This document shows, piece by piece, positions 13,379 to 61,343 of a DNA stretch of 64,000 bases. Origin of the DNA: a virus. The stretch spans positions 1-64,000 of the IMG/VR virus record IMGVR_UViG_3300024346_000044; one strand, written 5' to 3'. Numbering within the stretch: the first letter of the stretch is position 1; the number at the start of each line of letters is the position of its first letter. The position numbers and the translations under genes were made by a program. The notes below the pieces were generated by a model. The model saw nothing but the letters and a program-made list of their open reading frames with translations. It was not told the DNA's origin and did no database searches.

Positions 13379-14107
13379 ATGGCATCAAAACCCCACACAG
13401 ATGAGATTTATAAGGAAAAAAGAATTCCTAAAAATCCAATTAAGTTTAAACTTCAACTAAATGAAGAACAAAAACTAGCAAAAGAAAAAATATTAAATAA
13501 TACTATTACTTTACTTGCTGGATCAGCGGGTTCAGGTAAAACGTTATTATCATGTCAAATAGCGTTAGATGGTCTATTTAGGAGAATTTATGATAAGGTA
13601 ATAATAACACGTCCAACAGTATCAAAAGAAGAAATTGGTTTTTTACCTGGTGATTTAAGAGAAAAAATGGATCCTTGGGTTCAACCTATCTACCAAAATA
13701 TGTTTTTACTTTATGATAAAGTTAAAGTAGAAAAATTCATTGAAGAAAGAAAAATATAAATTATACCTGTATCATTTATGAGAGGTAGAACATTTGTAGA
13801 TTCATGCATTATAGTAGATGAAGCACAAAACGTTACTCATGAACAAATGGAAATGATTATAACTAGAATAGGTAAAAGAAGTAAAATGATTATATGTGGA
13901 GATGACCACCAAGTTGATTTAAAAAATAAAGCAGATTCTGGATTTAGATTTATATATAAAGCAGCTTGCAAAATAAAAAAACTAGAATCTATTAAATTAC
14001 TTGAAAATCATAGAGATCCTATTGTAGAAGATTTAATTGAATATTATGAAGAAAAAATATTAGGTGGAATAAAATTAAAAACTTCCGGCTCTAAGGGAAG
14101 GAAGTAA
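13379..14107 (+). pseudogene. phoH: PhoH-family ATPase interrupted by an in-frame TAA at 13757-13759
   Basis: GSAGSGKT, ITRP, IGFLPGDLREKM, then KI*IIPVSFMRGRT, IVDEAQN, TRIG, GDDHQVD, HRDPIV; both ORF halves are in the same frame. Confidence 0.85.
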
Positions 14108-23400: not shown

Positions 23401-26400
23401 CAGCTACGGCTACAATATTAGAAACAGCTAGAAATATTAATGGTGTAAGTTTTAATGGTTCTGCAAATATTACAATAACAGCAGCAGGTTCTACACTATC
23501 AGACACAGTCCCAATATCAAAAGGAGGTACTGGAGCTACTAGTGCAGGTGCTGCAAGAACATCTTTAGGAGTAGATGCAGCAGGAACAGTTAATTATACA
23601 TTACCAACAGCAGCCGCAAATACATTAGGTGGTGTAAAAATTGGAAGTGGAATTTCAATATCAAGTGGTGTAATATCAGCAGATAATAATGGCACTATAA
23701 CAAGTGTTACAGGAACCGCACCTGTTGCTTCATCAGGAGGGACTACACCTGTTATTTCAATGGCAGCAGCGGATGATAGTACTAATGGATATTTAACTTC
23801 AACAGATTGGTCAACTTTTAATTCAAAAGGTAGTGGTGATGTAACAGAAGTAACTTCTGCAACAACAGACCAAATAACAGTAGCAAATAGCACGGGTCCA
23901 AACCCTGCTATTTCAGCAGTAACGGCAGCAATAGCAAATGCGGGAACAGGATTAGCAACAGCTGACCAAATTCATACCTTTGTAACTACTCAAACAGATG
24001 CAATAGCAGCAAATACATCAGGAACCGCTGCTTCTTTATCCTCTACTTTAATAACTGGAAGAGGGGGAACAGGATTAACTTCTATAGGAAGTGCATTACA
24101 AGTACTAAGAGTAAATGCCGCAGGAAATGCTTTAGAATATGCTACTTCAACAGTTGGTGATATTACTGAAGTTCAATCATCTACTACAAACCAACTTGTA
24201 GTAACAAACGGAGCAGGTCCAATACCATCATTAGCAATAACAACAGCAGCGATTGCAGACGCGGGAACAGGATTAGCAACAGCAGACCAAATTCATACTT
24301 TTGTAACTACTCAAACAGATGAAACAGCAGCCGATACATCTGGTAACGCGGCAACCTCAACAAAAATAGCAAGTATTACAAATTCTAACATTGTTCAATT
24401 AACTTCTACTCAAACATTAACAAATAAAACATTAACATCTCCAACAATTGGAGATACTAGTAATATTACATTCCCAACTTTTAATCAAAATACAACGGGT
24501 AATGCTGCAACAGCTACAACATTAGCAACCGCAAGAACTATTGCAGGTGTATCATTTGATGGATCCGCTAATATATCATTAAATAATAATTCAATTACAA
24601 ATGGTGCAGGATATACTACTAATACAGGTACATTAACTGGTAATGGCGCAACAAATAGAGTTCCGATCTATAATGGGACTACATCATTCACAACAGACTC
24701 AGGATTTACATATTCATCTGATATATTAAGTACAGAAAAATTAAATATAACAGCTATAGCAGCAACTGTATCCGAGAATACTACAATCATGATAGATGGC
24801 GATGGCCAAACATTGACCAGAGAATTAGGTTCAAATGCTTACAATTCAACGACAATCGGTACAAATACAAATGCATTAACAGTTGATAATGCAACAGTTC
24901 AATTAAATTCCGGAACTACATTTAATGGTAGTGCAGCAAGAACATTATCTGCAAAAACAGCAGCAATTGCAAATGGTGGGGCAGCATTAGCAACAGCAGA
25001 CCAGATTCATACATTTGTTACTACACAGACCGATGCTATAGATGCCGATACCTCAGGTAATGCGGCTACAGCTACTATATTAGCAACTGCAAGAACTATT
25101 GCAGGTGTATCATTCAACGGTTCAGCTAATATATCATTAAATAACAACGCAATAACTAATGGAGCAGGTTACACAACAAATGCTGGAACATTAACTGGTA
25201 ATGGTACAACAAATAGAGTTCCAATTTATAATGGAACAACTTCATTTACTACAGATAGTGGATTTACATATTCATCTAATATATTAAGTACAGAAAAATT
25301 AAATATAACAGCTATAGCAGCAACTGTATCCGAGAATACTACAATCATGATAGATGGCGATGGCCAAACATTGACCAGAGAATTAGGTTCAAACGCATTT
25401 AATAGTACAACAATCCCAACTAACAATAACCAATTAACAAACGGAGCTGGGTTTACAACAAATGCTGGAACATTAACTGGAAACGGTACATCAAATAGAG
25501 TTCCAATCTACAATGGAACAACTTCATTTACTACAGATAGTGGATTTACCTATACCGGTAACAAATTAACTGCAGAAGGATTAAATGTAACCGGCCCAAT
25601 ATCAGCATCCATAGGAGCTGCTCCTTACATGAAATTAGATCTGGAAAGACAACTTTTTGGTGACACTGACGGAAATTCTAATGGTGCAACATTTATGTTA
25701 GATCAGACCTTAGGTTTTATTGTAGGATCGCCGATTATATCTTTAGATGGTGCAGTGACAATTAATGACTCAAGCAACGATGTAGACTTTAGAGTTGAAT
25801 CTAACGGCAACGCTAATATGTTGTTTGTAGATGCTGGAAATAATAGAGTTGGTATAGGAACTAATAGTCCAACTGAAGCACTAGATGTCAATGGTGCTTT
25901 TACAGCTACAAGTGTTAGATCTACAAGCGGAGGAACGGATGGTGGTTTTATTTTAAAACAATGGGCAGGTAGTACTAGCTACGCTTTTTTAGGTACTAAT
26001 GGTATGTCAGGAGTAGAGTACTGCATGATATCAGATGGTACTAATACTTTCTTAGGCGCTGGGACAGGTGGAGCTTTAAAATTAAGAGGACCTGCTAATG
26101 ATTCTTCTCCAGAAGTAATTATTAATGGAACTATAGTAGAAGTTAATACTGGTGATCTAAAAGTAACTGATGGATCTATAGCTGTAGGTAATATAACTAA
26201 TTCTACTACAGATGGTAGAATAGACGCTTCAAATGACGTTGTAGCTTTTTCATCATCAGATAAAAAATTAAAAGAAAATATTAAACCAATTAAAAATGCA
26301 TTAGATAAAGTATCTCAAATTTCAGGTGTTGAATTTGATTGGAAAGAATTAACTGAAGAAGAAAAATTATCTATACACGGGAATGAAGGGCATGATGTAG

Positions 26401-26558
26401 GAGTAATAGCACAAGAAATTGAAAAAGTATTACCTGAAGTAGTTCAAACTAGAGATAACGGTTATAAAGCAGTTAAATATGAAAAAATAGTTCCATTATT
26501 AATAGAATCAATAAAAGAATTAAAAGCCGAAATAGAAGAACTTAAAAAATCTAAATAA
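20496..26558 (+). CDS. long tail fibre with repeat modules and C-terminal intramolecular chaperone (peptidase S74)
   Basis: Thr/Ala/Gly-rich repeats; VGIGTNSP; C-terminal SSDKKLKENI..GVIAQEIEKVLPEVV..YEKIVPLLIESIKEL. Confidence 0.9.
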   Translation: MPNWKKVIVSGSDAILSNITASGNISASGDVTASGFLGEFIGNLTGNADTATILATSRNINGVPFNGSSAITVPAAGSTLTDTVPISKGGTNLTSLGSALQVLRVNAAGNGLEYSTSTVGDITSVLGGTGITVTDSSGPSPSVAIDSTVVTLTGAQELTNKDLTGASNTFPTFNQSTTGNAATATILQTSRTIGGVSFNGSANISLPGVNSTGNQDTSGTAASLSATLITGRGGTGLSSIGTSGQILSVNGAGNALEYITPTVGDITAIQTTTGDQMVITNGNGPIPSLAITTATIADAGTGLATADQIHTFVTTQTDETAADTSGNASTSTKIASITNANIVQLAATQELTNKDLTGAGNTFPTFNQSTTGNAATATTLQTARNINGVSFNGSAAITITAAGSTLSDTVPISKGGTNLTSVGTAGQILSVNGAGNALEYITPTVGDITAIETTTGDQIAITNGNGPIPSLAITTAAIANGGTGLATADQIHTFVTTQTDETAANTSGNAATSTKISSITNSNIVQLSSTQALTNKDLTGAGNTFPTFNQNTTGNAATATTLETSRNINGVAFNGSAAITVPAAGSTLTDTVTVAKGGTNLTSLGSAGQVLSVNGAGNALEYTTPTTGDVTEVTSATTDQITVANSTGPNPAISAVTGVIANGETSLATADQIHTFVTTQTDATAADTSGNAATATNVAYTGLTGTVPTWNQNTSGTAASLSSVLITGRGGTGLNSIGTAGQVLTVNAAGNGLEYATSTTGDITGVTAGTGLTGGGTSGNVTLNIDSTVATLTGTQTLTNKTLTSPTIGDTSNITFPTFNQNTTGNAATATLADSATVLATPRAINGVNFDGSAAITITAAGSTLSDTVPISKGGTNLTSVGTAGQILSVNGAGNALEYITPTVGDITAIQTTTGDQIAITNGNGPIPSLAITTATIADAGTGLATADQIHTFVTTQTDATAADTSGNAATATILETARNINGVSFNGSANITITAAGSTLSDTVPISKGGTGATSAGAARTSLGVDAAGTVNYTLPTAAANTLGGVKIGSGISISSGVISADNNGTITSVTGTAPVASSGGTTPVISMAAADDSTNGYLTSTDWSTFNSKGSGDVTEVTSATTDQITVANSTGPNPAISAVTAAIANAGTGLATADQIHTFVTTQTDAIAANTSGTAASLSSTLITGRGGTGLTSIGSALQVLRVNAAGNALEYATSTVGDITEVQSSTTNQLVVTNGAGPIPSLAITTAAIADAGTGLATADQIHTFVTTQTDETAADTSGNAATSTKIASITNSNIVQLTSTQTLTNKTLTSPTIGDTSNITFPTFNQNTTGNAATATTLATARTIAGVSFDGSANISLNNNSITNGAGYTTNTGTLTGNGATNRVPIYNGTTSFTTDSGFTYSSDILSTEKLNITAIAATVSENTTIMIDGDGQTLTRELGSNAYNSTTIGTNTNALTVDNATVQLNSGTTFNGSAARTLSAKTAAIANGGAALATADQIHTFVTTQTDAIDADTSGNAATATILATARTIAGVSFNGSANISLNNNAITNGAGYTTNAGTLTGNGTTNRVPIYNGTTSFTTDSGFTYSSNILSTEKLNITAIAATVSENTTIMIDGDGQTLTRELGSNAFNSTTIPTNNNQLTNGAGFTTNAGTLTGNGTSNRVPIYNGTTSFTTDSGFTYTGNKLTAEGLNVTGPISASIGAAPYMKLDLERQLFGDTDGNSNGATFMLDQTLGFIVGSPIISLDGAVTINDSSNDVDFRVESNGNANMLFVDAGNNRVGIGTNSPTEALDVNGAFTATSVRSTSGGTDGGFILKQWAGSTSYAFLGTNGMSGVEYCMISDGTNTFLGAGTGGALKLRGPANDSSPEVIINGTIVEVNTGDLKVTDGSIAVGNITNSTTDGRIDASNDVVAFSSSDKKLKENIKPIKNALDKVSQISGVEFDWKELTEEEKLSIHGNEGHDVGVIAQEIEKVLPEVVQTRDNGYKAVKYEKIVPLLIESIKELKAEIEELKKSK
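20990..25100 (+). repeat. shuffled internal repeat modules of the long fibre
   Basis: ATADQIHTFVTTQTD x7, TFPTFNQxTTGNAATAT x5, plus AAGSTLxDTVP and VNxAGNALEY modules; boundaries approximate. Confidence 0.85.
24721..25393 (+). repeat. identical ~115 bp direct repeat in the fibre gene
   Basis: atatattaagtacagaaaaa...gaattaggttcaaa at 24721-24835 and 25279-25393. Confidence 0.85.
25565..25882 (+). repeat. 318 bp segment duplicated at 29411-29728 (copy 1)
   Basis: Manual alignment, ungapped, about 17 mismatches. Confidence 0.9.
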
Positions 26559-43900: not shown

Positions 43901-44304
43901 ACCAAAATTTAAATAAAGTAAGTTTAGGTATTGAATTACAAGCAGCTGGAGGATTAAAGAAACAATCAAATGGTACATACCAAACATGGTTTAAACAAAA
44001 TCTCCCATTATCTAAGGTAGCAAGACCAGTAGATAAAAATGGTCGTTTTACAGAATATAAAGGATACCAATATTATGAAAAATATTCAAATGCTCAAATT
44101 AATAATATAAGACAAATAGTAACAGGATGGATGAGTAAATATGGTATTCCTTATACATTTAATTATGATGAATTATTTACATTAAATAAAGTACCATTAA
44201 CTGGTAAGCCTGGTATTTATACACATAATAGTGTCCGTACAGATAAATTTGATGTATTTCCTCAAAAAGAATTAATTGACATGCTAAAAAGTATACAAAC
44301 GTAA
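40903..44304 (+). CDS. baseplate hub protein with C-terminal N-acetylmuramoyl-L-alanine amidase
   Basis: PMPGITS, RPGYTVLLEFG, GISGMRIF, HKV..GWETSIE hub motifs; C-terminal IYLHHTAG, THY, GIEL, YTHNSVRTDKFD. Confidence 0.75.
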   Translation: MSIIGEGFSDWMKKQVEVRQRTLGSGLVDNKRNISSANTDSISPFLNSSPWIRMASSVDLVQYNETEKKESSVPKSTKTVLDLFKSQDEFSSYINSFEGSGLAKNFVLHNGVMAVPNPSATIPVAGNQYSGLNDKAFNSNSTVNTGNIFGGTYGFGSSVTLQDGQGPVPMPGITSVSFSYQNDGALSKASVQIKAYSQFQFQLIDVLFQRPGYTVLLEFGHTTFLDNFGNTQYAGQGEYATTSPFNKMWEGSLPQYKIASEIAKEKQKWCGNYEGNFMKISKFNWKFNPDGTYDITCNLVGCGDVINSLKLNTAPNNQLQLKAESGQAANEEQREAAGEDGVVIVSEAIASSLNYALYRVYMTQQIAQGINTGYGAWANFVNFFSSPFANIKIAEAIIPDFPTPNFSIINNDGSIGTYNPKKDQNNPQRIFTSFKYNKKGITIKGGTMSVKNATGSTSSTYTPQTYITFGHLMALLLTNCNLVDSNNIPLTYLNMNFQNLDEDSILVKTFPGHFSADPNICVIPPTVINKDVSDGAFQRQEKIGNYDFVKAMAVPEIAKFAVEGEPEKGRLACVYLDINFIASILKNNKDKEDQSISVLSFLQGILSGINEALGGINNFRVLFNENTHMIDIVNQVPFNDKETDKTQPNLTTINTFGLTPGQGCFITDLSLKAELTDKFAAQISIGAQNNGNTNGTNAGSFSSYNYGLIDRITPIKKQVKEGDAVKDPPEKKNTFTPDPDPIGTIFSDKVSEVLYEVYEDFEFTSEYVSTLKNIQSDYCNAVMGHKASGKTTPDGKATAAAPFFLPFNLGLTMHGISGMRIFQSFKTDGKVLPYTYKSDNVQLIIKSYSHKVDVGGWETSIETMTKPIMGPIGKNQSNPPQNTSTTGTAGSSNSSTSTSAPVTDEGTYTPDPNGTITSGYPLNKIYYDGPTNKTQIYLHHTAGRQNIKNTVHGWNNRTDHVATHYITNNAGEKEQLFVDEAWANHLGLPGSTFKKFGVSYQNLNKVSLGIELQAAGGLKKQSNGTYQTWFKQNLPLSKVARPVDKNGRFTEYKGYQYYEKYSNAQINNIRQIVTGWMSKYGIPYTFNYDELFTLNKVPLTGKPGIYTHNSVRTDKFDVFPQKELIDMLKSIQT

Positions 44305-45299
44305 TGTATTATCCTAAAAGTAGAATAATAGAGGGTCTTTACACTAATGGTGGAGAATTTAAATATAAAATTAATAATGAAATCTACATTGGTTATTATC
44401 ATAAATTTTATAATGGGAAAACATTTTCAGGAAAAACACAAAATTCCCTCCCAAAACAAGAAATTATCCCAATAATAGGGAATTTAAATTCTGATGTAGA
44501 TAAATTATATATTTTAAATACTGATACTAAGATAGCTTTATTTTTAAATGACCCTGATCCAATAGTAGACATTAGTAAATGGAACCAATCAGAAATTATT
44601 AAATATTTAAAACTTAAAGGTTTACCAACGAATGAAGATAATCCTAGAAATGTTCCACAAATCTATTATCCAAACCCAACAGATAAAGATTATGAAAATA
44701 GGACAATAAAGAGATATTTTGCTATGAAAATAAATGAACGAGATGTTTTTGTAGAGATATCAAAAGATACATATAAAAAGTTAAAGGATCAAGATAAAAA
44801 GTGGATGTGGGAAAGGTACCAAATATTTACTTTAGTTTGGACTATAGTGGGTGAAACCAAGTCACAAGTAGAAGAAACTAACAGAAATATATTATATCTT
44901 AAGCAAAGAGAAATAAGAAGAAATGGATTAATAGCATATTTAAGGGGCAACTATTCTAAGTTTTTTAAATCACTATCCCAATTAAAATTAGAAATGGCAC
45001 CCCCTCAATCTAAAAAGATAAATAAAACTCCTCCTAATGCTAATCCTATCCCACCTTCACCATCTGAAGTAAGATCTAAAAAGTTTTTCGATAAAAAGGA
45101 AAAATTAGAAGTAGCAGAAATATTAGCATTAAACCGAGAAATTGAAATGAAAGAAGGTCAACAAAAATCAAATAAACCCCTATTTGGTAACCCTGATGTT
45201 AAAGAAAATATTTCTGAAATTCCTGAAATCCCAAATGAAATAAATGATCCAATCCCACCTACTAACTCCTCTCCTTCAACTACAACTGGGGGATATTAA
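44304..45299 (+). CDS. conserved baseplate-region hypothetical protein
   Basis: LYTNGGEF, YIGYYH, PTDKDY..RYF; Pro-rich tail. Confidence 0.6.
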   Translation: MYYPKSRIIEGLYTNGGEFKYKINNEIYIGYYHKFYNGKTFSGKTQNSLPKQEIIPIIGNLNSDVDKLYILNTDTKIALFLNDPDPIVDISKWNQSEIIKYLKLKGLPTNEDNPRNVPQIYYPNPTDKDYENRTIKRYFAMKINERDVFVEISKDTYKKLKDQDKKWMWERYQIFTLVWTIVGETKSQVEETNRNILYLKQREIRRNGLIAYLRGNYSKFFKSLSQLKLEMAPPQSKKINKTPPNANPIPPSPSEVRSKKFFDKKEKLEVAEILALNREIEMKEGQQKSNKPLFGNPDVKENISEIPEIPNEINDPIPPTNSSPSTTTGGY

Positions 45300-45333: not shown

Positions 45334-46593
45334 ATGTTTTGGTTAGTTGAGACAGAGGATCAATTAGATAGGTTATACGAAAGCAATTTTAAGGAGGCAT
45401 TTATTGAAATAATCCCTTATGATTATAGAGAACACCCATGTCAAAGCCAAATTTGTGCGGTTTATATTAGACCTTTAGAATCAACAAAAGGATTTATTAT
45501 ACCTTACAACCATAGCGAAACATTTAAAATAGACATAAATAAAGCAGAAAAAATAATAGAGAAATTTGATAAGATATACGTTAGAGATAAGAAAGAATTT
45601 TTACATTACTACCCAATTCAAACTCTTTTCGACATTACTTTACATTGTCCTACATATATACCAGAACAAACACCGACTCATTATCATTTTCACAAAAATA
45701 ATCAAAACGCCTATAACGCGAGTATATTAATTCCAATCGTTAAGCACTATGAGTATTGTGAAAAAATTTTTAATAACATTAAATCGCATATAAATGACCA
45801 AATCAATGAATTTTACAACAACGACGCCACAATGGTGTTCAACGCTATCGAAAGAAATGGAATACGAATTAATAGAAGAGAATTTGAAAAGAACTTTCAC
45901 GTACCAAATTCCGATTTCGTATTTACACAATTTAACTTCAAAACCCTCACAAGAAGACCCTCAAATAAATTTAAAAAAGTAAATTATGCCGCGCTCAAAA
46001 AAGATAATGGTGAAAGAAAATCTTTCATTCCCAATAATGACCTTTTTGTGGAATTGGATATTAGTGCTTATCATCCTACCCTTTTGGCTCATTTGGTACA
46101 TTACAAGTTTAATACTGATGACATTCATGAAGCTTTTAGTAAGATGTATGGTGTTGACTACAAAACAGCAAAAGAAATTACTTTTAAACAGCTTTACGGA
46201 GGAATTTTTAAAGAATACAAAGAACTAGAGTTTTTTAAAAAGGTTCAAAAATATATAGATGAACTGTGGCAAAAGTTCCAAAGCGATGGTTACATTGAAG
46301 TACCGATATCAAAATGGAAATTTAAAAAAGATGAACTGGAAAATATGAATCCGCAAAAACTGTTAAATTACTTACTTCAAGGCTTGGAGACCGCAATGAA
46401 TGTTCGTATATTGTGGGAAATAATGAAGGTGTTAAAAGGTAAGAATACAAAAGTTGTATTATATACTTATGATAGTTTCTTATTTGACCTCGATAAGAGT
46501 GAAAAAGATACGTTTAATTTAATTTTAAAAATATTTGAAAAATACAAACTAACAACAAAAATGAACTATGGAACAGACTATGATTTTAGATAA
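45334..46593 (+). CDS. divergent, compact family-A nucleotide polymerase
   Basis: TLTRRPS, motif A ELDISAYHP, motif B AKEITFKQLYGG, NYLLQG, motif C LYTYDSFLFD. Confidence 0.75.
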   Translation: MFWLVETEDQLDRLYESNFKEAFIEIIPYDYREHPCQSQICAVYIRPLESTKGFIIPYNHSETFKIDINKAEKIIEKFDKIYVRDKKEFLHYYPIQTLFDITLHCPTYIPEQTPTHYHFHKNNQNAYNASILIPIVKHYEYCEKIFNNIKSHINDQINEFYNNDATMVFNAIERNGIRINRREFEKNFHVPNSDFVFTQFNFKTLTRRPSNKFKKVNYAALKKDNGERKSFIPNNDLFVELDISAYHPTLLAHLVHYKFNTDDIHEAFSKMYGVDYKTAKEITFKQLYGGIFKEYKELEFFKKVQKYIDELWQKFQSDGYIEVPISKWKFKKDELENMNPQKLLNYLLQGLETAMNVRILWEIMKVLKGKNTKVVLYTYDSFLFDLDKSEKDTFNLILKIFEKYKLTTKMNYGTDYDFR

Positions 46594-47041
46594 AGAGGTC
46601 AATACGTATAAGGTGGACGATTTCCAAGATTTCTCCACATTAAATTTACACGATTTGAACAATAAGCTATTTTGCACCTTTACTACCCTAGAAGAACTCG
46701 ATGGGTTAATTAAAAGCATAACATCCAGCTATGATATCATGTACAACAAATTATTTGTTCTTCATGTAAAAAGCAATGATGAATATGTTTGCACTTACAA
46801 TATTGATCAAGGTAACGTATCTGATCTTCCTAAAAATACAATCCTAGTACATAGAAAAAAAGATTCCAATACATTATATACTATTAATGCTCTTAATGAG
46901 TTAATTAAAAAGTTAAATAATGGTATTGTTGATACAAAATTTCCAATAGATTGGAAACATTACCGAAATACCATCTTGTTAACACAACATGATGAGTTAA
47001 GACAATTAAAGACAAAAATCCACAAGATTATTGAACTTTAA
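46568..47041 (+). CDS. conserved hypothetical protein (true start may be GTG 46613 or TTG 46655)
   Basis: NKLFCTF, TILVHRKKDSNTLYTINALN; late-type motif ATACGTATAA at 46602-46611. Confidence 0.65.
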   Translation: MEQTMILDKEVNTYKVDDFQDFSTLNLHDLNNKLFCTFTTLEELDGLIKSITSSYDIMYNKLFVLHVKSNDEYVCTYNIDQGNVSDLPKNTILVHRKKDSNTLYTINALNELIKKLNNGIVDTKFPIDWKHYRNTILLTQHDELRQLKTKIHKIIEL

Positions 47042-47090: not shown

Positions 47091-47927
47091 ATGAATTTAG
47101 ATATCATCAAACAAAAATTAGACTCTTTAAATAAGCAGTCAACAAACTCCCAAAACGGAGAAAGAAAACAATTATTTTGGAAACCTACAGTAGGTAAACA
47201 AATAATTAGAGTAGTTCCTTCAAAATTTAATAAGGAATTCCCATTTACAGAAATGAAATTTTACTATGGAATTGGTAAAAAAGTAATGGCATCACCCTCA
47301 AATTGGGGTGAAAAAGATCCAATTATCGAATTTTGTAAGAAATTACGTGATTCATCAGATAGAGAAAATTGGAGATTAGCTAAAAAATTAGAGCCAAAAA
47401 CCAGAACATTTGCCCCTGTTATTATAAGAGGTGAAGAAGCTGAAGGTGTTAAACTATGGCAATTTGGAAAAGAAGTATACGATGCTTTCTTAAACATGGC
47501 TTACGATGAAGAGATAGGTGACTACACTAACATTGCAAATGGTAGAGATATCAAATTGACAACAGTAGGACCAGAATCTACAGGTACTCCTTACAATAAG
47601 ACAACAATTGGACCATCATTAAAATTAACTCCATTATCAGATAACCAAGAAACAGTTACTGAATTGTTAGATAATCAAGTTGATCCAATGAAAATCTTTA
47701 AGCCACTTTCTTATGATGAAATGAAAAATGCATTACAAGAATGGTTATCACCTGAAGAAAGTGAAGGTTCTATATCATCTGAACCTGCAGTAGCATTTGA
47801 TAGTGATAAAAAAGAGACTCCAAAATCTAATTATTCATTAAAATCACCATCAAAATCAGACCAATTTGATAATATGTTTAATGACAATAAGTCTTCAAAA
47901 ACTGAAGATGATGGTTTACCATTTTAA
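47091..47927 (+). CDS. single-stranded DNA-binding protein (gp32-like)
   Basis: FWKP, IRVVP, KLWQFGK, GRDIKL; acidic tail ending DDGLPF. Confidence 0.85.
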   Translation: MNLDIIKQKLDSLNKQSTNSQNGERKQLFWKPTVGKQIIRVVPSKFNKEFPFTEMKFYYGIGKKVMASPSNWGEKDPIIEFCKKLRDSSDRENWRLAKKLEPKTRTFAPVIIRGEEAEGVKLWQFGKEVYDAFLNMAYDEEIGDYTNIANGRDIKLTTVGPESTGTPYNKTTIGPSLKLTPLSDNQETVTELLDNQVDPMKIFKPLSYDEMKNALQEWLSPEESEGSISSEPAVAFDSDKKETPKSNYSLKSPSKSDQFDNMFNDNKSSKTEDDGLPF

Positions 47928-47936
47928 TAAAAATAC

Positions 47937-49010
47937 ATGCCAAGAAAAAAATCAATATCAGCGGCTGTGTCCTCTGAAATAAGATCTAATTTTAATTTAG
48001 ATAATTTTAAAAATAAAAAAGGTCTATCATCAAAAGCCAAATTTAAAGACCAGGAATGGATCCCTCTTTCTGATGCTTATCAAGAAATAACATCTGTTCC
48101 TGGAATACCTATGGGGCATATTGTTTTGTTAAGAGGACATTCAGATACAGGTAAAACAACCGCTTTACTAGAAGCTGCAGTATCCGCACAAAAAACAAAG
48201 ATACTGCCTGTTTTTATTATTACTGAAATGAAGTGGAATTGGGAACATGCTAAGCAAATGGGATTGCAAATTGATGAAGTAATAGATAAAGAAACCGGAG
48301 AAATTATAGACTATACAGGTAATTTTATTTATGTAGATAGAGAAACTATAAATACAATTGAAGATGTTTCTAGCTTTATTTTAGATTTAATAGATGAACA
48401 GAAAAAAGGTGATTTACCTTATGATTTACTATTCTTATGGGATTCAATTGGATCAGTACCTTGTGAAATGTCTGTAAAATCAAATAAAAATAATAATGAA
48501 TGGAATGCTGGTGCAATGTCTACTCAATTTGGTAATAACGTAAACCAAAGAATTACATTATCAAGAAAAGAATCATCACCGTTTACTAATACATTAGTTT
48601 GTATCAATAAAGTATGGACAGCAAAAGCTGAATCACCAATGGGTAAACCTAAGTTAATGAATAAAGGTGGATTTGCTATGTGGTTTGATTCTACATTTGT
48701 AGTAACATTTGGCAATATAATGTCTGCTGGAACTTCCAAAATTAAAGCAATTAAAGATGGTAAGCAAGTAGAATTTGCTAAACGTGTTAATGTTCAGATT
48801 GATAAAAACCATATTAATGGAGTTACAACAAGAGGTAGAATTGTAATGACACCTCATGGATTTATTTTAGATAATGATAAAGCATTAAAAACTTATAAAG
48901 AACAAAATGCTAAAGCCTGGAAAGAAATTCTAGGAGGTGGTGATTTTAAAATAGTAGAGGAAGACCAAAACTATGAAGATATTACCTCATATATAGGAGA
49001 ACCCGAATAA
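47937..49010 (+). CDS. RecA/UvsX-like recombinase
   Basis: GIPMGHI, Walker A GHSDTGKT, LWDSIGS, KGG, KNH. Confidence 0.85.
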   Translation: MPRKKSISAAVSSEIRSNFNLDNFKNKKGLSSKAKFKDQEWIPLSDAYQEITSVPGIPMGHIVLLRGHSDTGKTTALLEAAVSAQKTKILPVFIITEMKWNWEHAKQMGLQIDEVIDKETGEIIDYTGNFIYVDRETINTIEDVSSFILDLIDEQKKGDLPYDLLFLWDSIGSVPCEMSVKSNKNNNEWNAGAMSTQFGNNVNQRITLSRKESSPFTNTLVCINKVWTAKAESPMGKPKLMNKGGFAMWFDSTFVVTFGNIMSAGTSKIKAIKDGKQVEFAKRVNVQIDKNHINGVTTRGRIVMTPHGFILDNDKALKTYKEQNAKAWKEILGGGDFKIVEEDQNYEDITSYIGEPE

Positions 49011-49013
49011 ATT

Positions 49014-50039
49014 ATGAAACAAAAAGAATTATTAAAACTCCTGGACGATGTTCAGGAGAACGGAAAAGAGACTGCTTCTGGTGAAAGATTTTTATTAATA
49101 GATGGATTAAATTTATTTTTTAGAAACTTTGCTGTAATGAATATGGTAAATCCTGATGGGGTACATATTGGAGGTTTAGGTGGATTTTTTAGGTCACTAG
49201 GTGCTGAAATCAGAAGAATCGAACCTACCCAAGTATATGTAATATTTGATGGAGTTGGTTCTTCTAATAACAGAAAAAATATAATACCCGAATATAAATC
49301 AGGTAGAGATCTACAGCGTATTACAAATTGGGAGGTATTCGATAATCATGATGAAGAAGATGATTCAAAGGTAGACCAAATTGTTAGAATTATTCATTAT
49401 TTAAAAACTTTACCAGTTAAAACTATATCTATTGATAAAGTTGAAGCTGATGATATTATTGCCCATTTAAGTAGAATTTTACCTAAAAATGATAAAGACA
49501 AAGCATTTATAGTATCTAGTGATAAAGATTTCATCCAGTTAGTAAGTGAAAATGTATTTTTATATAGACCAATGGAAAAGGAATATTATACTAGGCAAAC
49601 TGTTTATGACAAATATAATATGTCCCCTGAAAATTTTATATTACATAAAACACTTTTAGGAGATAATTCTGATAAAATTAAAGGAGTTAAAGGACTAGGA
49701 GAAAAAGGATTATATAAAAAATTTCCTGAATTACAAGAACGTGATTTAACTTTAAAAGATATAATCCAAATATCAGAATCAAAATTTAAAGAGCATGTAG
49801 TATATGCTCGTATAGTTCAAATGGTTAATGAGTTAGAAAAAAATTATAAAGTAATGGATTTATCCAACCCAATGATCGATGAAAGAGATAAAGAATATTT
49901 AAAAGAGATTGTCGATTCAAAAGAGCTTTCGTATATTCCCGAACAGTTCGTAGCAATGTATCACCAAGATAAATTGGGAGGAATGATCAGAAATGTAGAT
50001 TTCTGGGTAAAAGATGTTTTCGCAAAATTAGTTATATGA
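49014..50039 (+). CDS. 5'-3' exonuclease/flap endonuclease (T4 RNase H-like)
   Basis: LIDGLN, FDG, YKSGR, EADDII, SSDKDF, GDNSDKIKGVKGLGEK. Confidence 0.92.
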   Translation: MKQKELLKLLDDVQENGKETASGERFLLIDGLNLFFRNFAVMNMVNPDGVHIGGLGGFFRSLGAEIRRIEPTQVYVIFDGVGSSNNRKNIIPEYKSGRDLQRITNWEVFDNHDEEDDSKVDQIVRIIHYLKTLPVKTISIDKVEADDIIAHLSRILPKNDKDKAFIVSSDKDFIQLVSENVFLYRPMEKEYYTRQTVYDKYNMSPENFILHKTLLGDNSDKIKGVKGLGEKGLYKKFPELQERDLTLKDIIQISESKFKEHVVYARIVQMVNELEKNYKVMDLSNPMIDERDKEYLKEIVDSKELSYIPEQFVAMYHQDKLGGMIRNVDFWVKDVFAKLVI

Positions 50040-51400
50040 CATTAAAAACTTTAAACCAATACGGTCCTCACTTTCAAGTAAGAGTACTGTCTTCATTATT
50101 AAATCATAAGGATTTTTTAACAAATATCCATGATATTTTAAGTGAGGATTATTTTGATAACCAATCCCATAAATGGATAATATCAGAAATCTTAAAATAT
50201 TACGATAAGTATCACACTACTCCCTCAATGGATGTTCTTAAAATAGAACTACAAAAGATAGAAAATGAAGTATTAGGTTTAGGTATTAAAACTGAATTAG
50301 GTTTAGCATATAGGGTAGATGAAGATGATTCTAATTACATTCAAGAAGAATTCTCATCATTTTGTAAAAACCAACAACTTAAAAAGGCATTATTAGGTAG
50401 TGTAGATTTGCTAAAAATGGGGGATTATGACTCCATCAAAAACTTAATTGGCAACGCATTAAAAGCAGGCCAGGATAAAAACATAGGACATGAATATAAA
50501 AAAGACATTGAATCTAGATATAGGGAAGACCATAGAACAACAATTGCAACCCCTTGGGAAAAAATTAATGATATACTCCAAGGTGGACTTGGAAATGGTG
50601 ATTTTGGCCTTATATTTGGTAATCCAGGAGGTGGTAAATCTTGGACATTAGTAGCATTAGGTGGATCTGCAGTAAGAGCAGGTTATAATGTTTTACACTA
50701 TACCTTAGAATTAGGTGAAAAGTATGTAGGAAGACGTTATGATGCTTTCTTTAGCAATATACCAGTTGACAATATTACTAAAAATAGAGAAAAAATAGAA
50801 GGAATAGTAGATAAAATCCCAGGTAATTTAATTATAAAAGAATTTCCAACAGGAAAGGCAACAGTTTCTACACTAGAATCACATATCAAAAAAGTTACAG
50901 ACACAGGAGTTAAACCTGATTTAATTATAATAGATTATGTTGACTTACTTGGCACAAAAAAGCGAACAGTTGATCGTAAGAGTGAAATTGATGATATTTA
51001 TACTAGCACAAAAGGTCTCGCTCGAGAATTAGATATTCCAATTTGGAGTGTTTCTCAAGTTAACAGAGCTGGAGCTAATGATGCTATTGTAGAAGGAGAT
51101 AAAGCAGCTGGATCTTATGATAAACTTATGATCACAGATGTTTGTGTATCCCTTTCTAGAAGAAAAGAAGATAAAGTTAATGGAACCGGTAGATTCCATA
51201 TAATGAAAAATAGATACGGAATGGATGGAATAACTTTTAGTGTTAAAGCTGATACCTCAACAGGTCATTTTAAAGTTTATGATTATGACCCTCATGATGT
51301 AGTAGAAGAACCACAAAATAATGGATCTAGTCTTAAAAAAGATTTTTCTGATATGGATAAACAATTACTAAGAAGCAAATTACTAAATTTAAACTCATAA
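50036..51400 (+). CDS. DnaB/gp41-like replicative helicase
   Basis: GNPGGGKS, YTLEL, IIIDYVDL, SQVNR, MKNRYG. Confidence 0.92.
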   Translation: MTLKTLNQYGPHFQVRVLSSLLNHKDFLTNIHDILSEDYFDNQSHKWIISEILKYYDKYHTTPSMDVLKIELQKIENEVLGLGIKTELGLAYRVDEDDSNYIQEEFSSFCKNQQLKKALLGSVDLLKMGDYDSIKNLIGNALKAGQDKNIGHEYKKDIESRYREDHRTTIATPWEKINDILQGGLGNGDFGLIFGNPGGGKSWTLVALGGSAVRAGYNVLHYTLELGEKYVGRRYDAFFSNIPVDNITKNREKIEGIVDKIPGNLIIKEFPTGKATVSTLESHIKKVTDTGVKPDLIIIDYVDLLGTKKRTVDRKSEIDDIYTSTKGLARELDIPIWSVSQVNRAGANDAIVEGDKAAGSYDKLMITDVCVSLSRRKEDKVNGTGRFHIMKNRYGMDGITFSVKADTSTGHFKVYDYDPHDVVEEPQNNGSSLKKDFSDMDKQLLRSKLLNLNS

Positions 51401-57231: not shown

Positions 57232-57753
57232 ATGGATAAATTGAGAACCCAATACATTTTCAACATAGACAAAGAACACGTTACACAAGAGATATCAAAA
57301 TTACAACCACTTAATTATAACCAATTTAGATGGTGGAGACGATTTGATTCACCAAATAAACCCCTTCATAAAAATTCAGATTTATTAGATAAAATTCAAA
57401 ATGGGGACTTTGATTTTTCACATTATTTTTGGCAGGCAAAATATACAGAAATGGAAATGGATGAAATTCATAATGAGGTCTGGCCTGACTCAGTTAAATA
57501 TAAGGAAAAAACTTCAATCCATGGTGCCCGAAGACAACGTTTATGGGCTGACTTTGAAAAAGACGAACAAGAAAAACTCAATAGCATATATAAAGAATTT
57601 CCTCTTTCTATTAGAATGACTCGTAAACAAGTAAGAGAAGGAATAGAAGAATTTGGAGGTACGCTAGAGGATTATTATCATTACTGTAAAGATAAGTTTG
57701 GAGCAAGACACAAACGATTAGAAACAAGAGGAAGACCAAGAAAAGTTATATGA
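57232..57753 (+). CDS. hypothetical protein, first gene of the que operon
   Basis: YNQFRWWRRF, KIQNGDF; overlaps the next gene (ATGA). Confidence 0.7.
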   Translation: MDKLRTQYIFNIDKEHVTQEISKLQPLNYNQFRWWRRFDSPNKPLHKNSDLLDKIQNGDFDFSHYFWQAKYTEMEMDEIHNEVWPDSVKYKEKTSIHGARRQRLWADFEKDEQEKLNSIYKEFPLSIRMTRKQVREGIEEFGGTLEDYYHYCKDKFGARHKRLETRGRPRKVI

Positions 57754-58544
57754 AAGTATCACACGAAGCACCAATACCCTATATGAAACAAGTTAGGGGA
57801 TTAATTGATTATGATTATTGTCTCCCCCATATGTTAGATGAAAATGAAGATTATGTAAAATATTTTCAAGAATCTAAAGAAATGGGGCGGTATATTATTA
57901 TGGATAACTCCTTACATGAGTTAGGACATCCATATGATAAAGAACGTTTGGCACATTGGCTATATTATTTCAAACCAGATGAGTTTATAGTACCTGATTA
58001 TTGGCAAGATAAAACAGCAACGTTAGTATCAGCTAAAGAATGGATTAATAAAATATATCCTGAAAATACTACTCCTATGGCTGTAGTACAAGGTAAAAAT
58101 AAAAATGAATCCAGAGAATGTTATGATATATTAAAACATCAAGGATATCAAAAAATAGCATTTAGTTATGGAGCTGATTGGTATTATGAAAATGGAAAAT
58201 CTACTTCTAAAACCACAGAAAATATAACAGTAACTAAAGCCCATGGCCGGTATAATTTTATAAAAGAATTATATGAGGATAATACAATATCAAAATCAGA
58301 CAGAATACATTTATTAGGTTGCAATATACCCCAGGAATTTAAATGGTATAAAAATATGCCATTTATAAAAACAATAGATACATCAAACCCAGTTATACAT
58401 GGTTTATCAGGAATAAAATATGAACCCTGGGGGTTAAATAACAAAATATCTACTAAGGTAGATAAATTTAAAGGAGAAGCTGAGCATTGGGAAACAGCAA
58501 TTTACAATATACAATTATTTAAAACATTTATACCAAAAACATGA
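57750..58544 (+). CDS. TGT-fold protein, DpdA-like deazaguanine transglycosylase candidate
   Basis: IIMDNS, IVPD, AVVQG, IHLLG, IDTS motifs in TGT order; coupled to queC. Confidence 0.65.
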   Translation: MKVSHEAPIPYMKQVRGLIDYDYCLPHMLDENEDYVKYFQESKEMGRYIIMDNSLHELGHPYDKERLAHWLYYFKPDEFIVPDYWQDKTATLVSAKEWINKIYPENTTPMAVVQGKNKNESRECYDILKHQGYQKIAFSYGADWYYENGKSTSKTTENITVTKAHGRYNFIKELYEDNTISKSDRIHLLGCNIPQEFKWYKNMPFIKTIDTSNPVIHGLSGIKYEPWGLNNKISTKVDKFKGEAEHWETAIYNIQLFKTFIPKT

Positions 58545-59407
58545 AACAAGCAGTATTAAGTTTAAGTGGTGGGATGGATAGTAGTACACTATTACTTCAC
58601 TTATTAGCAAACGATTATAAAGTAACAGCTCTAAGTTTTGATTATGGTCAAAAACATAGAGTTGAATTAGAAAGAGCACAACAATTAGTAGATTATTTAA
58701 ATGATAATGGTCAAGATATCACATATCAATCTATTAAATTAGATGGTTTAACATCATTATTAGATTCAGCTTTAGTAGAAGGTGGGGATGATGTGCCCGA
58801 AGGACATTATGAAGAAGATAATATGAAAGCAACAGTAGTGCCTAATAGAAATAAAATATTCTCATCACTAATACAATCTGTAGCGTTATCAATCGCTAAT
58901 AAAACAGAATCATCGGTAAAAATAGCAATGGGTATACATGCTGGGGATCATGCAATTTACCCTGATTGTAGACAAGAATTTAGAGATGCGGATTATAAAG
59001 CATTTGCTGAAGGTAATTGGGATGCTCAAAGAGTAGGATTATACACACCTTATTTAGATGGAGATAAATTTGATATTTTAAAAGATGGAGAAGTATGTTG
59101 TAAAGAATTAGGAATTGATTTTGATGAAGTTTATAAAAGAACAAATACATCATACAAACCTGTTTTTATACCTCACCCTTGGTCTGATACTGGAGGAGGA
59201 AATTGGTATTCAGATTACAAATCGGCATCATCAGTAGAAAGAATAGAAGCATTTTTAAAATTAGGAAGACCTGACCCTGTGGTATATGCTGATGAAACAG
59301 GAGTTGTAGGTTATGAAATTGCAAAATCTCATGTTCAAAAATTATTGGATGAGTATGCAAATAATCCTAATATGAATGATACCATTGATATGGTAAATAA
59401 TATGTAA
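58541..59407 (+). CDS. queC: 7-cyano-7-deazaguanine synthase
   Basis: SLSGGMDS, FDYGQKH, VPNRN, HAGD, YPDCR. Confidence 0.93.
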   Translation: MKQAVLSLSGGMDSSTLLLHLLANDYKVTALSFDYGQKHRVELERAQQLVDYLNDNGQDITYQSIKLDGLTSLLDSALVEGGDDVPEGHYEEDNMKATVVPNRNKIFSSLIQSVALSIANKTESSVKIAMGIHAGDHAIYPDCRQEFRDADYKAFAEGNWDAQRVGLYTPYLDGDKFDILKDGEVCCKELGIDFDEVYKRTNTSYKPVFIPHPWSDTGGGNWYSDYKSASSVERIEAFLKLGRPDPVVYADETGVVGYEIAKSHVQKLLDEYANNPNMNDTIDMVNNM

Positions 59408-59408
59408 T

Positions 59409-59564
59409 ATGAAACAACCAGACGCAAAAAAACATCAATTAGTAAGTTTTATTAAATCAAGTATAAGAATATTAGGTTATTGTTTTATACCATTTAGTTT
59501 AGTAACTGCTATGCTTATTTTAGTAGCTAGTGAAGCAATAGGTATAGTAGAAGAATTAGTTTAA
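59409..59564 (+). CDS. small membrane protein (51 aa), not in the ORF track
   Basis: MKQPDAKKHQLVSFIKSSIRILGYCFIPFSLVTAMLILVASEAIGIVEELV; fills the gap between queC and thioredoxin. Confidence 0.65.
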   Translation: MKQPDAKKHQLVSFIKSSIRILGYCFIPFSLVTAMLILVASEAIGIVEELV

Positions 59565-59580
59565 AATAAAATAAGTAAAA

Positions 59581-59850
59581 ATGAAAGTACAAGTTAAAAA
59601 AGGAATATTATATTTTACAGCTCCATGGTGTGGACCTTGTAAACAATTAGGACCTAAAATGGAACAATTAGAAAATAGTGGGGTTCCTATTAAAAAAATA
59701 AATACAGATTATGAAGCTACTTTAGTTACACAATATGCTATAAAATCTGTTCCAACTTTAGTCATAACTGATTTAGATGGAAATGAAATAAAAAGAATAC
59801 AAGGTGGTGGAAAATCACTTCAACAATTAAAAGACTGGTATAATGGGTAA
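59581..59850 (+). CDS. thioredoxin
   Basis: FTAPWCGPCK, IKSVPT. Confidence 0.9.
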   Translation: MKVQVKKGILYFTAPWCGPCKQLGPKMEQLENSGVPIKKINTDYEATLVTQYAIKSVPTLVITDLDGNEIKRIQGGGKSLQQLKDWYNG

Positions 59851-60307
59851 ATTTCAATCAAGTAAAGTTTTTGACGGATTTAGTACAGTATTCCGTCAAT
59901 GGAAGGCAGAAGATACACACTGTAAATTTTTACATGGGTATGGTATTTCATTTAAAGTATATTTTGAAGGTGAATTAGATGAAAAAAATTGGGTATGGGA
60001 TTTTGGTGGTATGAAAAGAGCTAAAACACTTATAGAAGGTAAACAACCTAAAGAATGGATGGATTATATGTTTGACCATACTGTTATAATAGCAGAAGAT
60101 GATCCTGGAATGGGTGGTTGGAAAACAATGGATGGGATAGGAGTAATTCAATTAAGAGTAATACCAGCTACAGGAGCAGAAAAATTTTCAGAGTTTATAT
60201 TTAATAAGTTAAATGACTTTGTCCATACAGAAACTGAAGGTAGAGTAAGAGTTACTAAAGTTAAGTTTATGGAACACGGTAAAAACGCAGCTTATTATTG
60301 TGAATAA
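59843..60307 (+). CDS. queD: 6-carboxy-5,6,7,8-tetrahydropterin synthase
   Basis: HCKFLHGY, WVWDFG, FDH, GAE, FMEH; que context. Confidence 0.88.
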   Translation: MGKFQSSKVFDGFSTVFRQWKAEDTHCKFLHGYGISFKVYFEGELDEKNWVWDFGGMKRAKTLIEGKQPKEWMDYMFDHTVIIAEDDPGMGGWKTMDGIGVIQLRVIPATGAEKFSEFIFNKLNDFVHTETEGRVRVTKVKFMEHGKNAAYYCE

Positions 60308-60313
60308 TTTTAT

Positions 60314-60384
60314 TATCGGGTCGTCTAGAGGCAGGACAATGGTTTTTGGTACCATGAACGGAGGTTCGAATCCTTCCCCGATAA
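60314..60384 (+). tRNA. tRNA-Gln(TTG)
   Basis: Acceptor tatcggg/cccgata, anticodon arm atggt-ttTTGgt-accat, T loop ttcgaat; no CCA encoded. Confidence 0.88.
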
Positions 60385-60397
60385 CGATAAAACCAAA

Positions 60398-60471
<74 letters not shown>

Positions 60472-60476
60472 TTAAT

Positions 60477-60548
60477 GCTCCGTTCGTCTAGGGGTTAGGA
60501 CATATGGTTTTCATCCATAAAACAGGGGTTCGATTCCCCTACGGAGTA
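60477..60548 (+). tRNA. tRNA-Glu(TTC)
   Basis: Acceptor gctccgt/acggagt, anticodon arm tatgg-ttTTCat-ccata, T arm agggg-ttcgatt-cccct. Confidence 0.9.
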
Positions 60549-60572
60549 CAGTAAATAATAAATGAAAAATAA

Positions 60573-61343
60573 ATGAAAAGAATAGAAGATTATAACAAAG
60601 TGTTACCAGTATTAGAATTATACAGATGTGTTCAAAGTGAAGGTAGCAGATTTGGTAGACCAACTATTGCGGTTAGAACTACAGGATGTACTCATAGATG
60701 TTATTTTGGAGATGGGGGTTGGTGTGATTCTTGGTATACAAGTATACACCCAGAAAAAGGTACATTTACCTTTAATGATATTATTAAAATATATGATGAC
60801 AACCCCCATGTAAAAGAAATGATGCTTACTGGTGGTTCGCCTACAATGCATCCTGCTTTAGTAAATGAAATAACACATTTTGCAAATGAAAGAAACATTT
60901 TGGTTACAATTGAGACAGAAGGTTCTCATTTTCTTGAAACAGACCATCCTTTGGATCTTATTAGCCTTAGTCCTAAATTTAGTAATAGTGTGCCTGTACT
61001 TGGCGCTGTTACACCTAATGGGGCTGTCGCCGATGAACGAATGATTAAAGTGCATAATAGACTTAGATTAAATAAAGAAGCTATTAGTAAAACAATTGCA
61101 TACCATAAAGATTATCACTTCAAACCCGTATGGGATGGTACAGATGAAAATCTAAAAGAAATTGAGGCATTTAGGGTAGATATGGAAATACCCAAAGATA
61201 AAACTTATATAATGCCTGCTGGGGATACAAGAGAAACATTAGTAAAAATGTATCCTTTAGTATTTGAATTGTGTGCTGAAAAGGGATATAATATGACAGG
61301 CAGAGACCACATCATTGCATTTGATACAGAAAGAGGTGTCTAA
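60573..61343 (+). CDS. queE: 7-carboxy-7-deazaguanine synthase (radical SAM)
   Basis: VQSEG, GCTHRC(x7)CDS, LTGGSP, IETEG, SLSPK. Confidence 0.9.
   Translation: MKRIEDYNKVLPVLELYRCVQSEGSRFGRPTIAVRTTGCTHRCYFGDGGWCDSWYTSIHPEKGTFTFNDIIKIYDDNPHVKEMMLTGGSPTMHPALVNEITHFANERNILVTIETEGSHFLETDHPLDLISLSPKFSNSVPVLGAVTPNGAVADERMIKVHNRLRLNKEAISKTIAYHKDYHFKPVWDGTDENLKEIEAFRVDMEIPKDKTYIMPAGDTRETLVKMYPLVFELCAEKGYNMTGRDHIIAFDTERGV

Follow-up and report, generated by a model that had tools for sequence, protein, structure and literature searches.

Why would a phage with T4-type structural genes place, at the head of a block of replication genes, a family-A DNA polymerase of only 419 residues whose active site departs from that of DNA polymerase I (Pol I)? 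The question is raised by the first 64,000 bases (the window) of the 72,293-base IMG/VR virus record IMGVR_UViG_3300024346_000044, which CheckV estimates to be 43% complete. An open reading frame (ORF) at 45334..46593 encodes this polymerase. We found that it is a member of the published divPolA1 family, and that the literature already covers this gene family and the chief peculiarities of its structure; the residue-level and neighbouring-gene features described below go beyond the main text of that account. The gene and its parts are as follows.

45334..46593 (+): divPolA1 gene, encoding a 419-aa, thumb-truncated, exonuclease-dead family-A polymerase (ORF; homology to gp001 of Flavobacterium phage vB_FspM_immuto, hereafter immuto; AlphaFold2 (AF2) model; Klenow match)
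45334..45807 (+): DEDD-exonuclease-like domain without the Exo I DxE, residues ~1-158 (structure match, conservation)
45808..45942 (+): thumb stump of two short helices, residues ~159-203 (profile alignment, AF2 model)
45943..45966 (+): TLTRRPSN, the equivalent of the Pol I TGRLSS motif, with R208 at the position of R668 (profile alignment to Klenow)
46057..46077 (+): motif A, DISAYHP, residues 242-248, with the catalytic D242, and H247 at the E710 steric-gate position
46159..46200 (+): motif B, YKTAKEITFKQLYG, residues 276-289, with Y276 (R754 position), K280, F284 and Y288
46468..46479 (+): motif C, YDSF, residues 379-382, with the catalytic D380, and S381 replacing E883

The relationship to Pol I required a profile to detect. 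A single-sequence phmmer search of the Protein Data Bank (PDB) sequences with the polymerase gave 0 matches, whereas the profile of an alignment that joins the window protein to 134 representatives of nearly full length (alignment A1; 135 sequences in total, 402-471 aa, the representatives being 29-51% identical to the window protein) matched the Klenow fragment at E 4.4e-10. In the resulting alignment, D242 and H247 of motif A correspond to D705 and E710; Y276, K280, F284 and Y288 of motif B to R754, K758, F762 and Y766; and Y379, D380 and S381 of motif C to H881, D882 and E883. The hallmarks of family A (the motif A Asp, the motif B Lys and Tyr, and the motif C Asp) are all present, and the steric-gate Glu (E710) and the third carboxylate (E883) are both absent. 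An earlier sequence-only reading of this DNA, made without database searches, had described a 419-aa family-A polymerase keeping both catalytic Asp residues, with His for the steric-gate Glu, Tyr for R754 and a YDSF motif C. The ORF and the Klenow profile alignment yield the same protein and the same equivalences.

The divPolA1 family was described by Yutin et al. ('Jumping DNA polymerases in bacteriophages', Virol J 2024, PMC11348598; preprint 10.1101/2024.04.26.591309), whose main text defines it from a set of 14 phages made up of immuto and uncultured relatives with genomes of 155-190 kb. The traits given there are a truncated thumb, a 3'-5' exonuclease domain inactivated by replacement of its three catalytic Asp residues, a conserved palm, replication genes conserved downstream, and a 'regular' family A, B or C polymerase encoded at another place in the genome, neighboured by GroEL/GroES and nucleotide-metabolism genes. 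The authors note that the conserved setting of replication genes belongs to divPolA1 and not to the regular polymerase (PMC11348598). By tblastn, the window polymerase matches immuto gp001, the family's type member, at 35.5% identity over 99% coverage (E 1e-63, in all four immuto records), and it shows all of the testable defining traits: full-length homology, the truncated thumb, the dead exonuclease domain, the conserved palm, the same downstream replication genes and a regular polymerase, which in both phages lies beside GroES/GroEL and nucleotide-metabolism genes. It differs from the immuto protein in coming from another, more abundant marine lineage, in which many metagenome relatives are 62-67% identical to the window protein and the nearest few alone reach at least 84%, and in that the regular polymerase here is a split family-B enzyme (PolB) but a family-A enzyme (PolA) in immuto. 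The same paper describes a second family, divPolA2 of barbaviruses, which resembles the window protein in being a second divergent family-A polymerase beside a regular PolB and in having lost the thumb. That family has an unrelated N-terminal globular domain, a variable neighbourhood and RNA-polymerase-like structural matches (PMC11348598), whereas the window protein has a DEDD-like N-terminal domain and a fixed replication context. The genes that provide this context follow the polymerase on the same strand.

46568..47041 (+): orf157, a conserved 157-aa protein of no known family and a candidate partner (ORF, linkage)
47091..47927 (+): gp32-like protein that binds single-stranded DNA (SSB; Pfam gp32, E 9.5e-14; PHROG 224)
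47937..49010 (+): RecA/UvsX-like recombinase (Pfam RecA, E 9.3e-7; PHROG 8337 and PHROG 97, a UvsX-like family)
49014..50039 (+): 5'-3' exonuclease / flap endonuclease (FEN; Pfam 5_3_exonuc_N, E 1.4e-33)
50036..51400 (+): DnaB-like replicative helicase (PHROG 19, E 4.6e-82; Pfam DnaB_C, E 1.5e-18)

The Pfam and PHROG matches bear out the earlier description of the polymerase as heading an SSB-RecA-FEN-helicase block. The immuto gene order matches: polymerase, orf157 homologue, one additional gene in immuto, SSB, RecA, FEN, DnaB and ribonucleotide reductase. Three features go beyond the main text of PMC11348598, in which the words 'steric' and 'processivity' occur 0 times each and which mentions neither a steric-gate His, nor a motif C Ser/Ala, nor the small downstream ORF: the family-wide His at the steric gate, the family-wide Ser/Ala/Gly after the motif C Asp, and the conserved 157-aa ORF.

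The first two of these were established from alignment A1. D242, K280, D380 and R208 are each present in 135/135 sequences. At steric-gate position 247, His occurs in 133 sequences, Gln in 2 and Glu in 0; at position 381, after the motif C Asp, the residue is Ser in 98, Ala in 34 and Gly in 3, and acidic in 0/135. Position 379, before that Asp, is Tyr in 132 and Phe in 3, and Y288 (132/135), Q349 (134/135) and F284 (124/135) are similarly kept. Y276, at the R754 position, is less constant (Tyr 87, Arg 14, Ile 12, gap 6, Leu 4, Val 3, others 9). The polymerases of immuto and of the phages Mel-JY01 and LR756508 show the same motif pattern. Since the pattern is held family-wide, the unusual residues represent a family signature under selection and not the decay of a single gene; the sequence-only reading had named inactivity combined with a lack of conservation of these residues among orthologues as evidence that would speak against it, and over the 135 representatives they are conserved. 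A search of the literature, including PMC10201439 among the sources available in part, did not bring up any family-A enzyme described as having His at the steric gate. In marine viromes the divPolA1 family is highly abundant. At E<=1e-3 it comprises 4912 clusters at 90% identity, and 1110 representatives of clusters at 50% identity, of which 430 match at E<=1e-30. A genome-contig search with the single polymerase sequence found no relative among its 71 pattern matches.

Loss of the third carboxylate, of R754 in most members, of the thumb and of the exonuclease site could be read as the marks of a catalytically inactive pseudo-polymerase, serving as a scaffold or DNA-binding factor alone. Against this, both metal-binding Asp residues and the equivalents of K758, Y766, R668 and Q849 are invariant or nearly so over the 135 sequences, which is the pattern expected of a working active site, and we regard an inactive protein as extremely improbable.

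The fold of the polymerase was predicted with confidence from A1 (pLDDT, the predicted local distance difference test score, 96.3; pTM, the predicted template modelling score, 0.93), and the structure prediction that had been proposed earlier for the polymerase alone thus gives a confident family-A fold. With Foldseek, the whole chain matches Klenow-type enzymes (1kfd at E 2.9e-16, TMq 0.73). Ranks 1-11 of the VIA-align comparison are family-A DNA polymerases, with Z scores of 19.4-23.4 and 365-406 of the 419 residues aligned; the closest are Mycobacterium smegmatis Pol1 (Z 23.4 over 394 residues) and phage G20c Pol I (Z 23.2 over 404), and Klenow aligns with Z 23.0 over 406 residues at a root-mean-square deviation (rmsd) of 3.1. 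Like Klenow, the window protein combines an exonuclease-like and a polymerase domain, and its TGR motif lines up with that of Klenow, as do motifs A, B and C. It differs in lacking Exo I, in carrying His for E710, Tyr for R754, Tyr for H881 and Ser for E883, and in its thumb and fingers. Approximately 89 Klenow residues (fragment 234-322, the thumb body) have no counterpart, the query profile advancing by 5 positions across them, and this gap falls between the IERNGIRIN helix and the TGR-like motif. The stump that remains consists of helices 159-175 and 181-187 in the model. The fingers are shorter, with 38 residues from the motif A Asp to the motif B Lys against 53 in Klenow (D705-K758), and the motif B Lys and motif C Asp are 100 residues apart against 124 (K758-D882). 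Deletion of the thumb tip of Klenow lowers DNA affinity and processivity.

The N-terminal domain retains the exonuclease fold and has lost its catalytic signature. Residues 1-177 align to the phage exonuclease ExnV1 with Z 11.6 and to RNase D with Z 9.9-10.9 (VIA-align), and Pfam gives no exonuclease match in the polymerase. Strand 1 ends without a DxE, position 25 being Glu in 39/135 and position 27 Ile in 108/135, as the sequence-only reading had observed in finding no clear Exo I DxE. Loss of the Exo II and Exo III Asp residues was judged by by-eye motif comparison. The domain has near-invariant residues of its own: H34 in 128, H60 in 133, Glu or Asp at 62 in 135, K87 in 128 and D100 in 122 of the 135 sequences, and the Asn at position 130 and P134 also belong to this near-invariant, largely polar set. 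Such a set in a dead exonuclease domain hints at a retained, different function, which might be binding of the 3' end or of a partner protein.

The window is not the whole record, and a regular polymerase lies just beyond its end. Pfam DNA_pol_B matches at 66689-67390 of the record with 99.9 bits, in a gene that starts at 65636, 1.6 kb past the end of the window.

Record 65636-67402: N-terminal piece of PolB, 588 aa, with Exo I (FDIETE), Exo II, Exo III, motif A (DLDFTSLYP) and motif B (KILLNSLYG)
Record 67688-68626: C-terminal piece of PolB, 312 aa, with motif C (YIDTDS)
Record 69412-71910 (L035 7413-9911): Hsp20, GroES and GroEL homologues, directly after the PolB genes
L035 2223-3644: FolE (GTP cyclohydrolase I) and a MazG-like pyrophosphohydrolase, before PolB and just past the window end

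Between the two PolB pieces lies an 86-aa ORF that has no clear family, and the split falls between motifs B and C. Split PolB enzymes are functional in some T4-like phages; here the split may likewise be functional, or it may be the trace of a mobile insertion. The neighbourhood is syntenic with that of the regular PolA of immuto, gp199, which precedes GroES/GroEL. Every other searched divPolA1 genome also has a regular polymerase: PolA in immuto (192 bits), PolB in Mel-JY01 (121.6 bits), PolB plus a PolC-like gene in LR756508, and PolB in the fragments G001 and G002. As for priming, a DnaG-type primase is annotated in immuto as gp091, with weak but collinear Pfam matches to the zinc ribbon, DNAG_N and Toprim, and it has clear orthologues in Mel-JY01 (39% identity, E 9e-61) and LR756508 (34%, E 2.5e-55). 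A DnaG-type primase is therefore present in 3/3 complete relatives tested, and our own fragment stops short of the corresponding region. These results answer the two genome-wide checks proposed in the sequence-only reading, for another replicative polymerase and for DnaG. That reading had stated that no primase or PolB occurs in the window, which is literally true, although PolB sits just outside it; the premise drawn from this, that a phage of a group using PolB lacks one here, fails. Its suggestion of a specialised enzyme fared better: with an ordinary, proofreading-type PolB in the same record, and with the odd motif residues conserved, divPolA1 is a second, specialised polymerase and not the sole replicase.

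Taken together, these observations favour a role for divPolA1 as an auxiliary, non-proofreading DNA polymerase of low processivity, working alongside the adjacent SSB, recombinase, FEN and helicase and beside the regular PolB, and we consider this the probable one. The palm and fingers retain what two-metal nucleotidyl transfer needs, the exonuclease domain is a dead shell and the thumb a stump. Judging from the sequence, we infer that the protein is active as a DNA polymerase, that its processivity would be low and that it would carry out short-patch synthesis within the replication and recombination machinery encoded directly behind it. Candidate tasks are to extend primers or D-loops until the regular polymerase takes over, and to fill gaps jointly with the FEN.

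Several points weigh against this assignment. The Pfam DNA_pol_A (PF00476) score of 21.2 bits is below the gathering cut-off of 34.3, although family-A homology is not in doubt given the profile match at E 4.4e-10 and a fold match with Z 23. Three key Pol I residues are altered family-wide (His for E710, Ser/Ala/Gly for E883 and mostly Tyr for R754), such that substrate choice or chemistry may differ from that of an ordinary DNA polymerase. At ~43% completeness, the record displays the replication gene set in part. No biochemical characterisation of any family member was found in the literature searched, as far as those sources were available. Lastly, the conserved replication context fits a central role as well as it fits an auxiliary one.

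The small gene directly behind the polymerase bears on this last point. The orf157 ORF shares 26 nt with the polymerase gene and is in the +1 frame relative to it, in line with the overlap with a conserved unknown ORF reported earlier. It lies directly downstream of the polymerase gene in 16/18 IMG/VR loci; in the remaining 2/18, the sequence ends 381 nt past the polymerase match or within the gene. Searches with the polymerase and with orf157 match the same 6/6 records among 50,697 phage records, and the two genes are direct neighbours in immuto and Mel-JY01, with 1.5 kb separating them in LR756508. The small protein is the more conserved of the two. It is closer to the window copy than the polymerase is in 16/16 loci (for example, 76.4% vs 61.9% and 61.7% vs 40.5%), and immuto gp002 is 56% identical to orf157, where the polymerase pair is 35.5% identical. 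Conservation is concentrated in a core of ~128 aa with 47 invariant columns among 17 sequences, and the first 28 residues are variable and disordered in the model. This linkage is a strong argument for a shared function, and the 157-aa protein, earlier put forward as a possible partner of the polymerase, is indeed tightly tied to its gene. As a co-inherited protein it probably acts with divPolA1, possibly by direct contact.

Sequence and structure comparisons placed orf157 in no known family. There was no Pfam and no NCBIfam match, and PHROG 1029, itself of unknown function, matched at E 0.009. The model (pLDDT 78.7, with 1/5 models confident) is alpha/beta and ferredoxin-like. Foldseek returned nothing at E<=0.001 against the PDB. 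The best VIA-align match, the SV40 T-antigen origin-binding domain (Z 6.0, 88 residues, rmsd 4.1), is within the noise range, as are the next, ACT/RRM-like domains at Z 5.8. In the protein atlas, orf157 falls with a viral hypothetical-protein cluster alone (0.78). Prediction of a polymerase-orf157 complex from alignments A1 and A2 scored 0.00, with the mark at 0.32, which is no evidence either way. We also considered fusions of the two proteins. Eight longer proteins are each a single-member cluster on 1-2 contigs, three of them connecting a C-terminal piece of the polymerase to orf157; because the two genes overlap out of frame, the fused forms look like frameshift or assembly errors. A programmed frameshift fusion was likewise rejected, as the genes overlap in 6/8 loci examined, with gaps of 13 and 63 nt between them in the remaining 2; the spacings of 19 nt in immuto and 50 nt in Mel-JY01 count against it in the same way.

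The strict linkage of orf157 to the polymerase gene, and its higher conservation in 16/16 loci, would also suit a phage in which divPolA1 is the core replicase, with orf157 and/or the SSB or helicase replacing the grip of the thumb and the regular polymerase confined to repair or a side role. DivPolA1 heads the conserved SSB-RecA-FEN-DnaB block, a point of context also made in the main text of PMC11348598, and the regular polymerase varies in family (immuto has A, this phage and Mel-JY01 have B, and LR756508 has B plus C-like) and is located among chaperonin and nucleotide-metabolism genes. On the other hand, a core replicase without proofreading and with a truncated thumb would have to copy a ~160 kb genome, the exonuclease and polymerase motifs of the regular PolB are intact, indicating selection for activity, and a clamp-like partner was not identified. 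We therefore consider this arrangement unlikely and retain the auxiliary role as the preferred one.

A small protein encoded next to a reduced family-A polymerase also recalls the CCPol-MP primase of SCCmec elements (Bebel et al., eLife 2020; Rice, Front Mol Biosci 2023). According to these accounts, the staphylococcal CCPol has a family-A catalytic domain and turns into a DNA primase, capable of de novo priming, when the small adjacent protein MP is bound (PMC7581432, PMC10061031), and related pairs of a polymerase and an oligonucleotide/oligosaccharide-binding (OB)-fold protein are described as widespread on Bacillota mobile elements (PMC10061031, PMC10201439). DivPolA1 and orf157 could by analogy form a PolA-based primase, or an RNA-synthesising enzyme akin to T7-type RNA polymerases; both activities had been proposed in the sequence-only reading. 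The parallels to CCPol-MP are a reduced family-A polymerase, an adjacent small protein without a recognisable family, conserved in the phages, and a replication operon that contains a helicase. However, CCPol lacks an exonuclease domain and keeps E710 (PMC7581432), whereas the window protein has a complete exonuclease-like domain at residues 1-158 and His for E710. MP has an OB fold (PMC10061031) and the orf157 model a ferredoxin-like one, and the phages discussed here also have a DnaG-type primase, immuto, Mel-JY01 and LR756508 all included. The resemblance thus appears to be architectural only.

For RNA synthesis, the active site offers a closer parallel. T7 RNA polymerase has a Gly at the steric-gate position, five residues after the motif A Asp, and its motif C reads HDS. 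The steric-gate Glu is absent in 135/135 divPolA1 sequences and their motif C reads YDS/A, so that, in sequence, the Ser after the motif C Asp together with the loss of the Glu is genuinely RNA-polymerase-like. The residue that replaces the steric-gate Glu is nevertheless a bulky His, F284 and Y288 are kept, the N-terminal domain is of the exonuclease-like kind, and single-subunit RNA polymerases align to the model at Z 7.1-13.4 over 190-246 residues, with the palm and fingers alone aligning, far below the Z 19.4-23.4 of the DNA polymerases. Given the regular PolB and the DnaG-type primase in 3/3 complete relatives, neither the primase-like nor the RNA-synthesising proposal has gained positive support, and we judge this class of enzyme to be distinctly improbable.

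A broader combination of these ideas would make divPolA1 and orf157 an invariant two-protein core of the replisome, which takes on work beyond ordinary polymerases, starting chains or extending RNA primers or RNA:DNA hybrids, and then hands the 3' end on to the regular polymerase, A, B or C, of the given phage. We rate it as rather unlikely. If it were true, the steric-gate His and the lost third carboxylate would have evolved to accommodate a ribose at the site of insertion or at the primer terminus, orf157 would take over from the missing thumb in gripping template or primer, and the pair would amount to a phage counterpart, on a family-A scaffold, of the hand-off by Pol alpha or DnaE, which would explain the free swapping of the regular polymerase. 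Whichever role applies, divPolA1 is the sole constant polymerase in a phage group whose regular polymerase swaps among families A, B and C. Knowledge of what such an enzyme does, with no thumb, a dead exonuclease and His at the steric gate, would explain how the phages cope with these swaps, as well as the constant pairing with a highly conserved 157-aa protein, and the enzyme could have an unusual sugar or primer specificity of practical use.

A further proposal concerned modified nucleotides, and the window does contain genes of a 7-deazaguanine pathway.

57750-58541 (+): DpdA homologue (37% identity to immuto gp206, E 1.9e-50)
58541-59407 (+): QueC
59843-60307 (+): QueD-like PTPS
60573-61343 (+): radical-SAM QueE-like gene

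The resulting 7-deazaguanine DNA-modification cluster spans 57750-61343 (+), with FolE just past the window end, and immuto carries the same pathway, including DpdA (gp206). The sequence-only reading had raised the possibility of adaptation to modified dGTP analogues, and a polymerase tuned to 7-deazaguanine or other modified dNTPs during replication would be in keeping with QueC, QueD and QueE in the window, with FolE just beyond, with the shared pathway of immuto and with the altered nucleotide-binding residues. DpdA, however, inserts 7-deazaguanine by guanine exchange in finished DNA, after replication. Since a DpdA homologue is present in both this phage and immuto, and acts post-replicatively, no special polymerase is required; the proposal gains no positive support and we consider it very unlikely.

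The remaining observations concern the wider window. The structural genes are T4-type (portal gp20, capsid gp23, protease, sheath and tube gp19). Just upstream of the polymerase gene, a 331-aa ORF at 44304-45299 (+) closes the tail-gene block; it has no Pfam, PHROG or NCBIfam match, and its position is conserved in 13/18 related IMG/VR loci at 27-99% identity. A scan for sigma-70 promoters was uninformative, with 57 found against 48.0 +/- 6.7 expected. PhoH is represented by two consecutive ORFs at 13379-13759 and 13778-14107 (+), covering Pfam profile positions 6-105 and 113-205, which may reflect a gene split in two, a frameshift or an error in sequencing. Finally, a 2020-aa protein encoded at 20496-26558 (+) carries a C-terminal endosialidase-chaperone (Peptidase_S74) domain and is probably a self-cleaving tail fibre.

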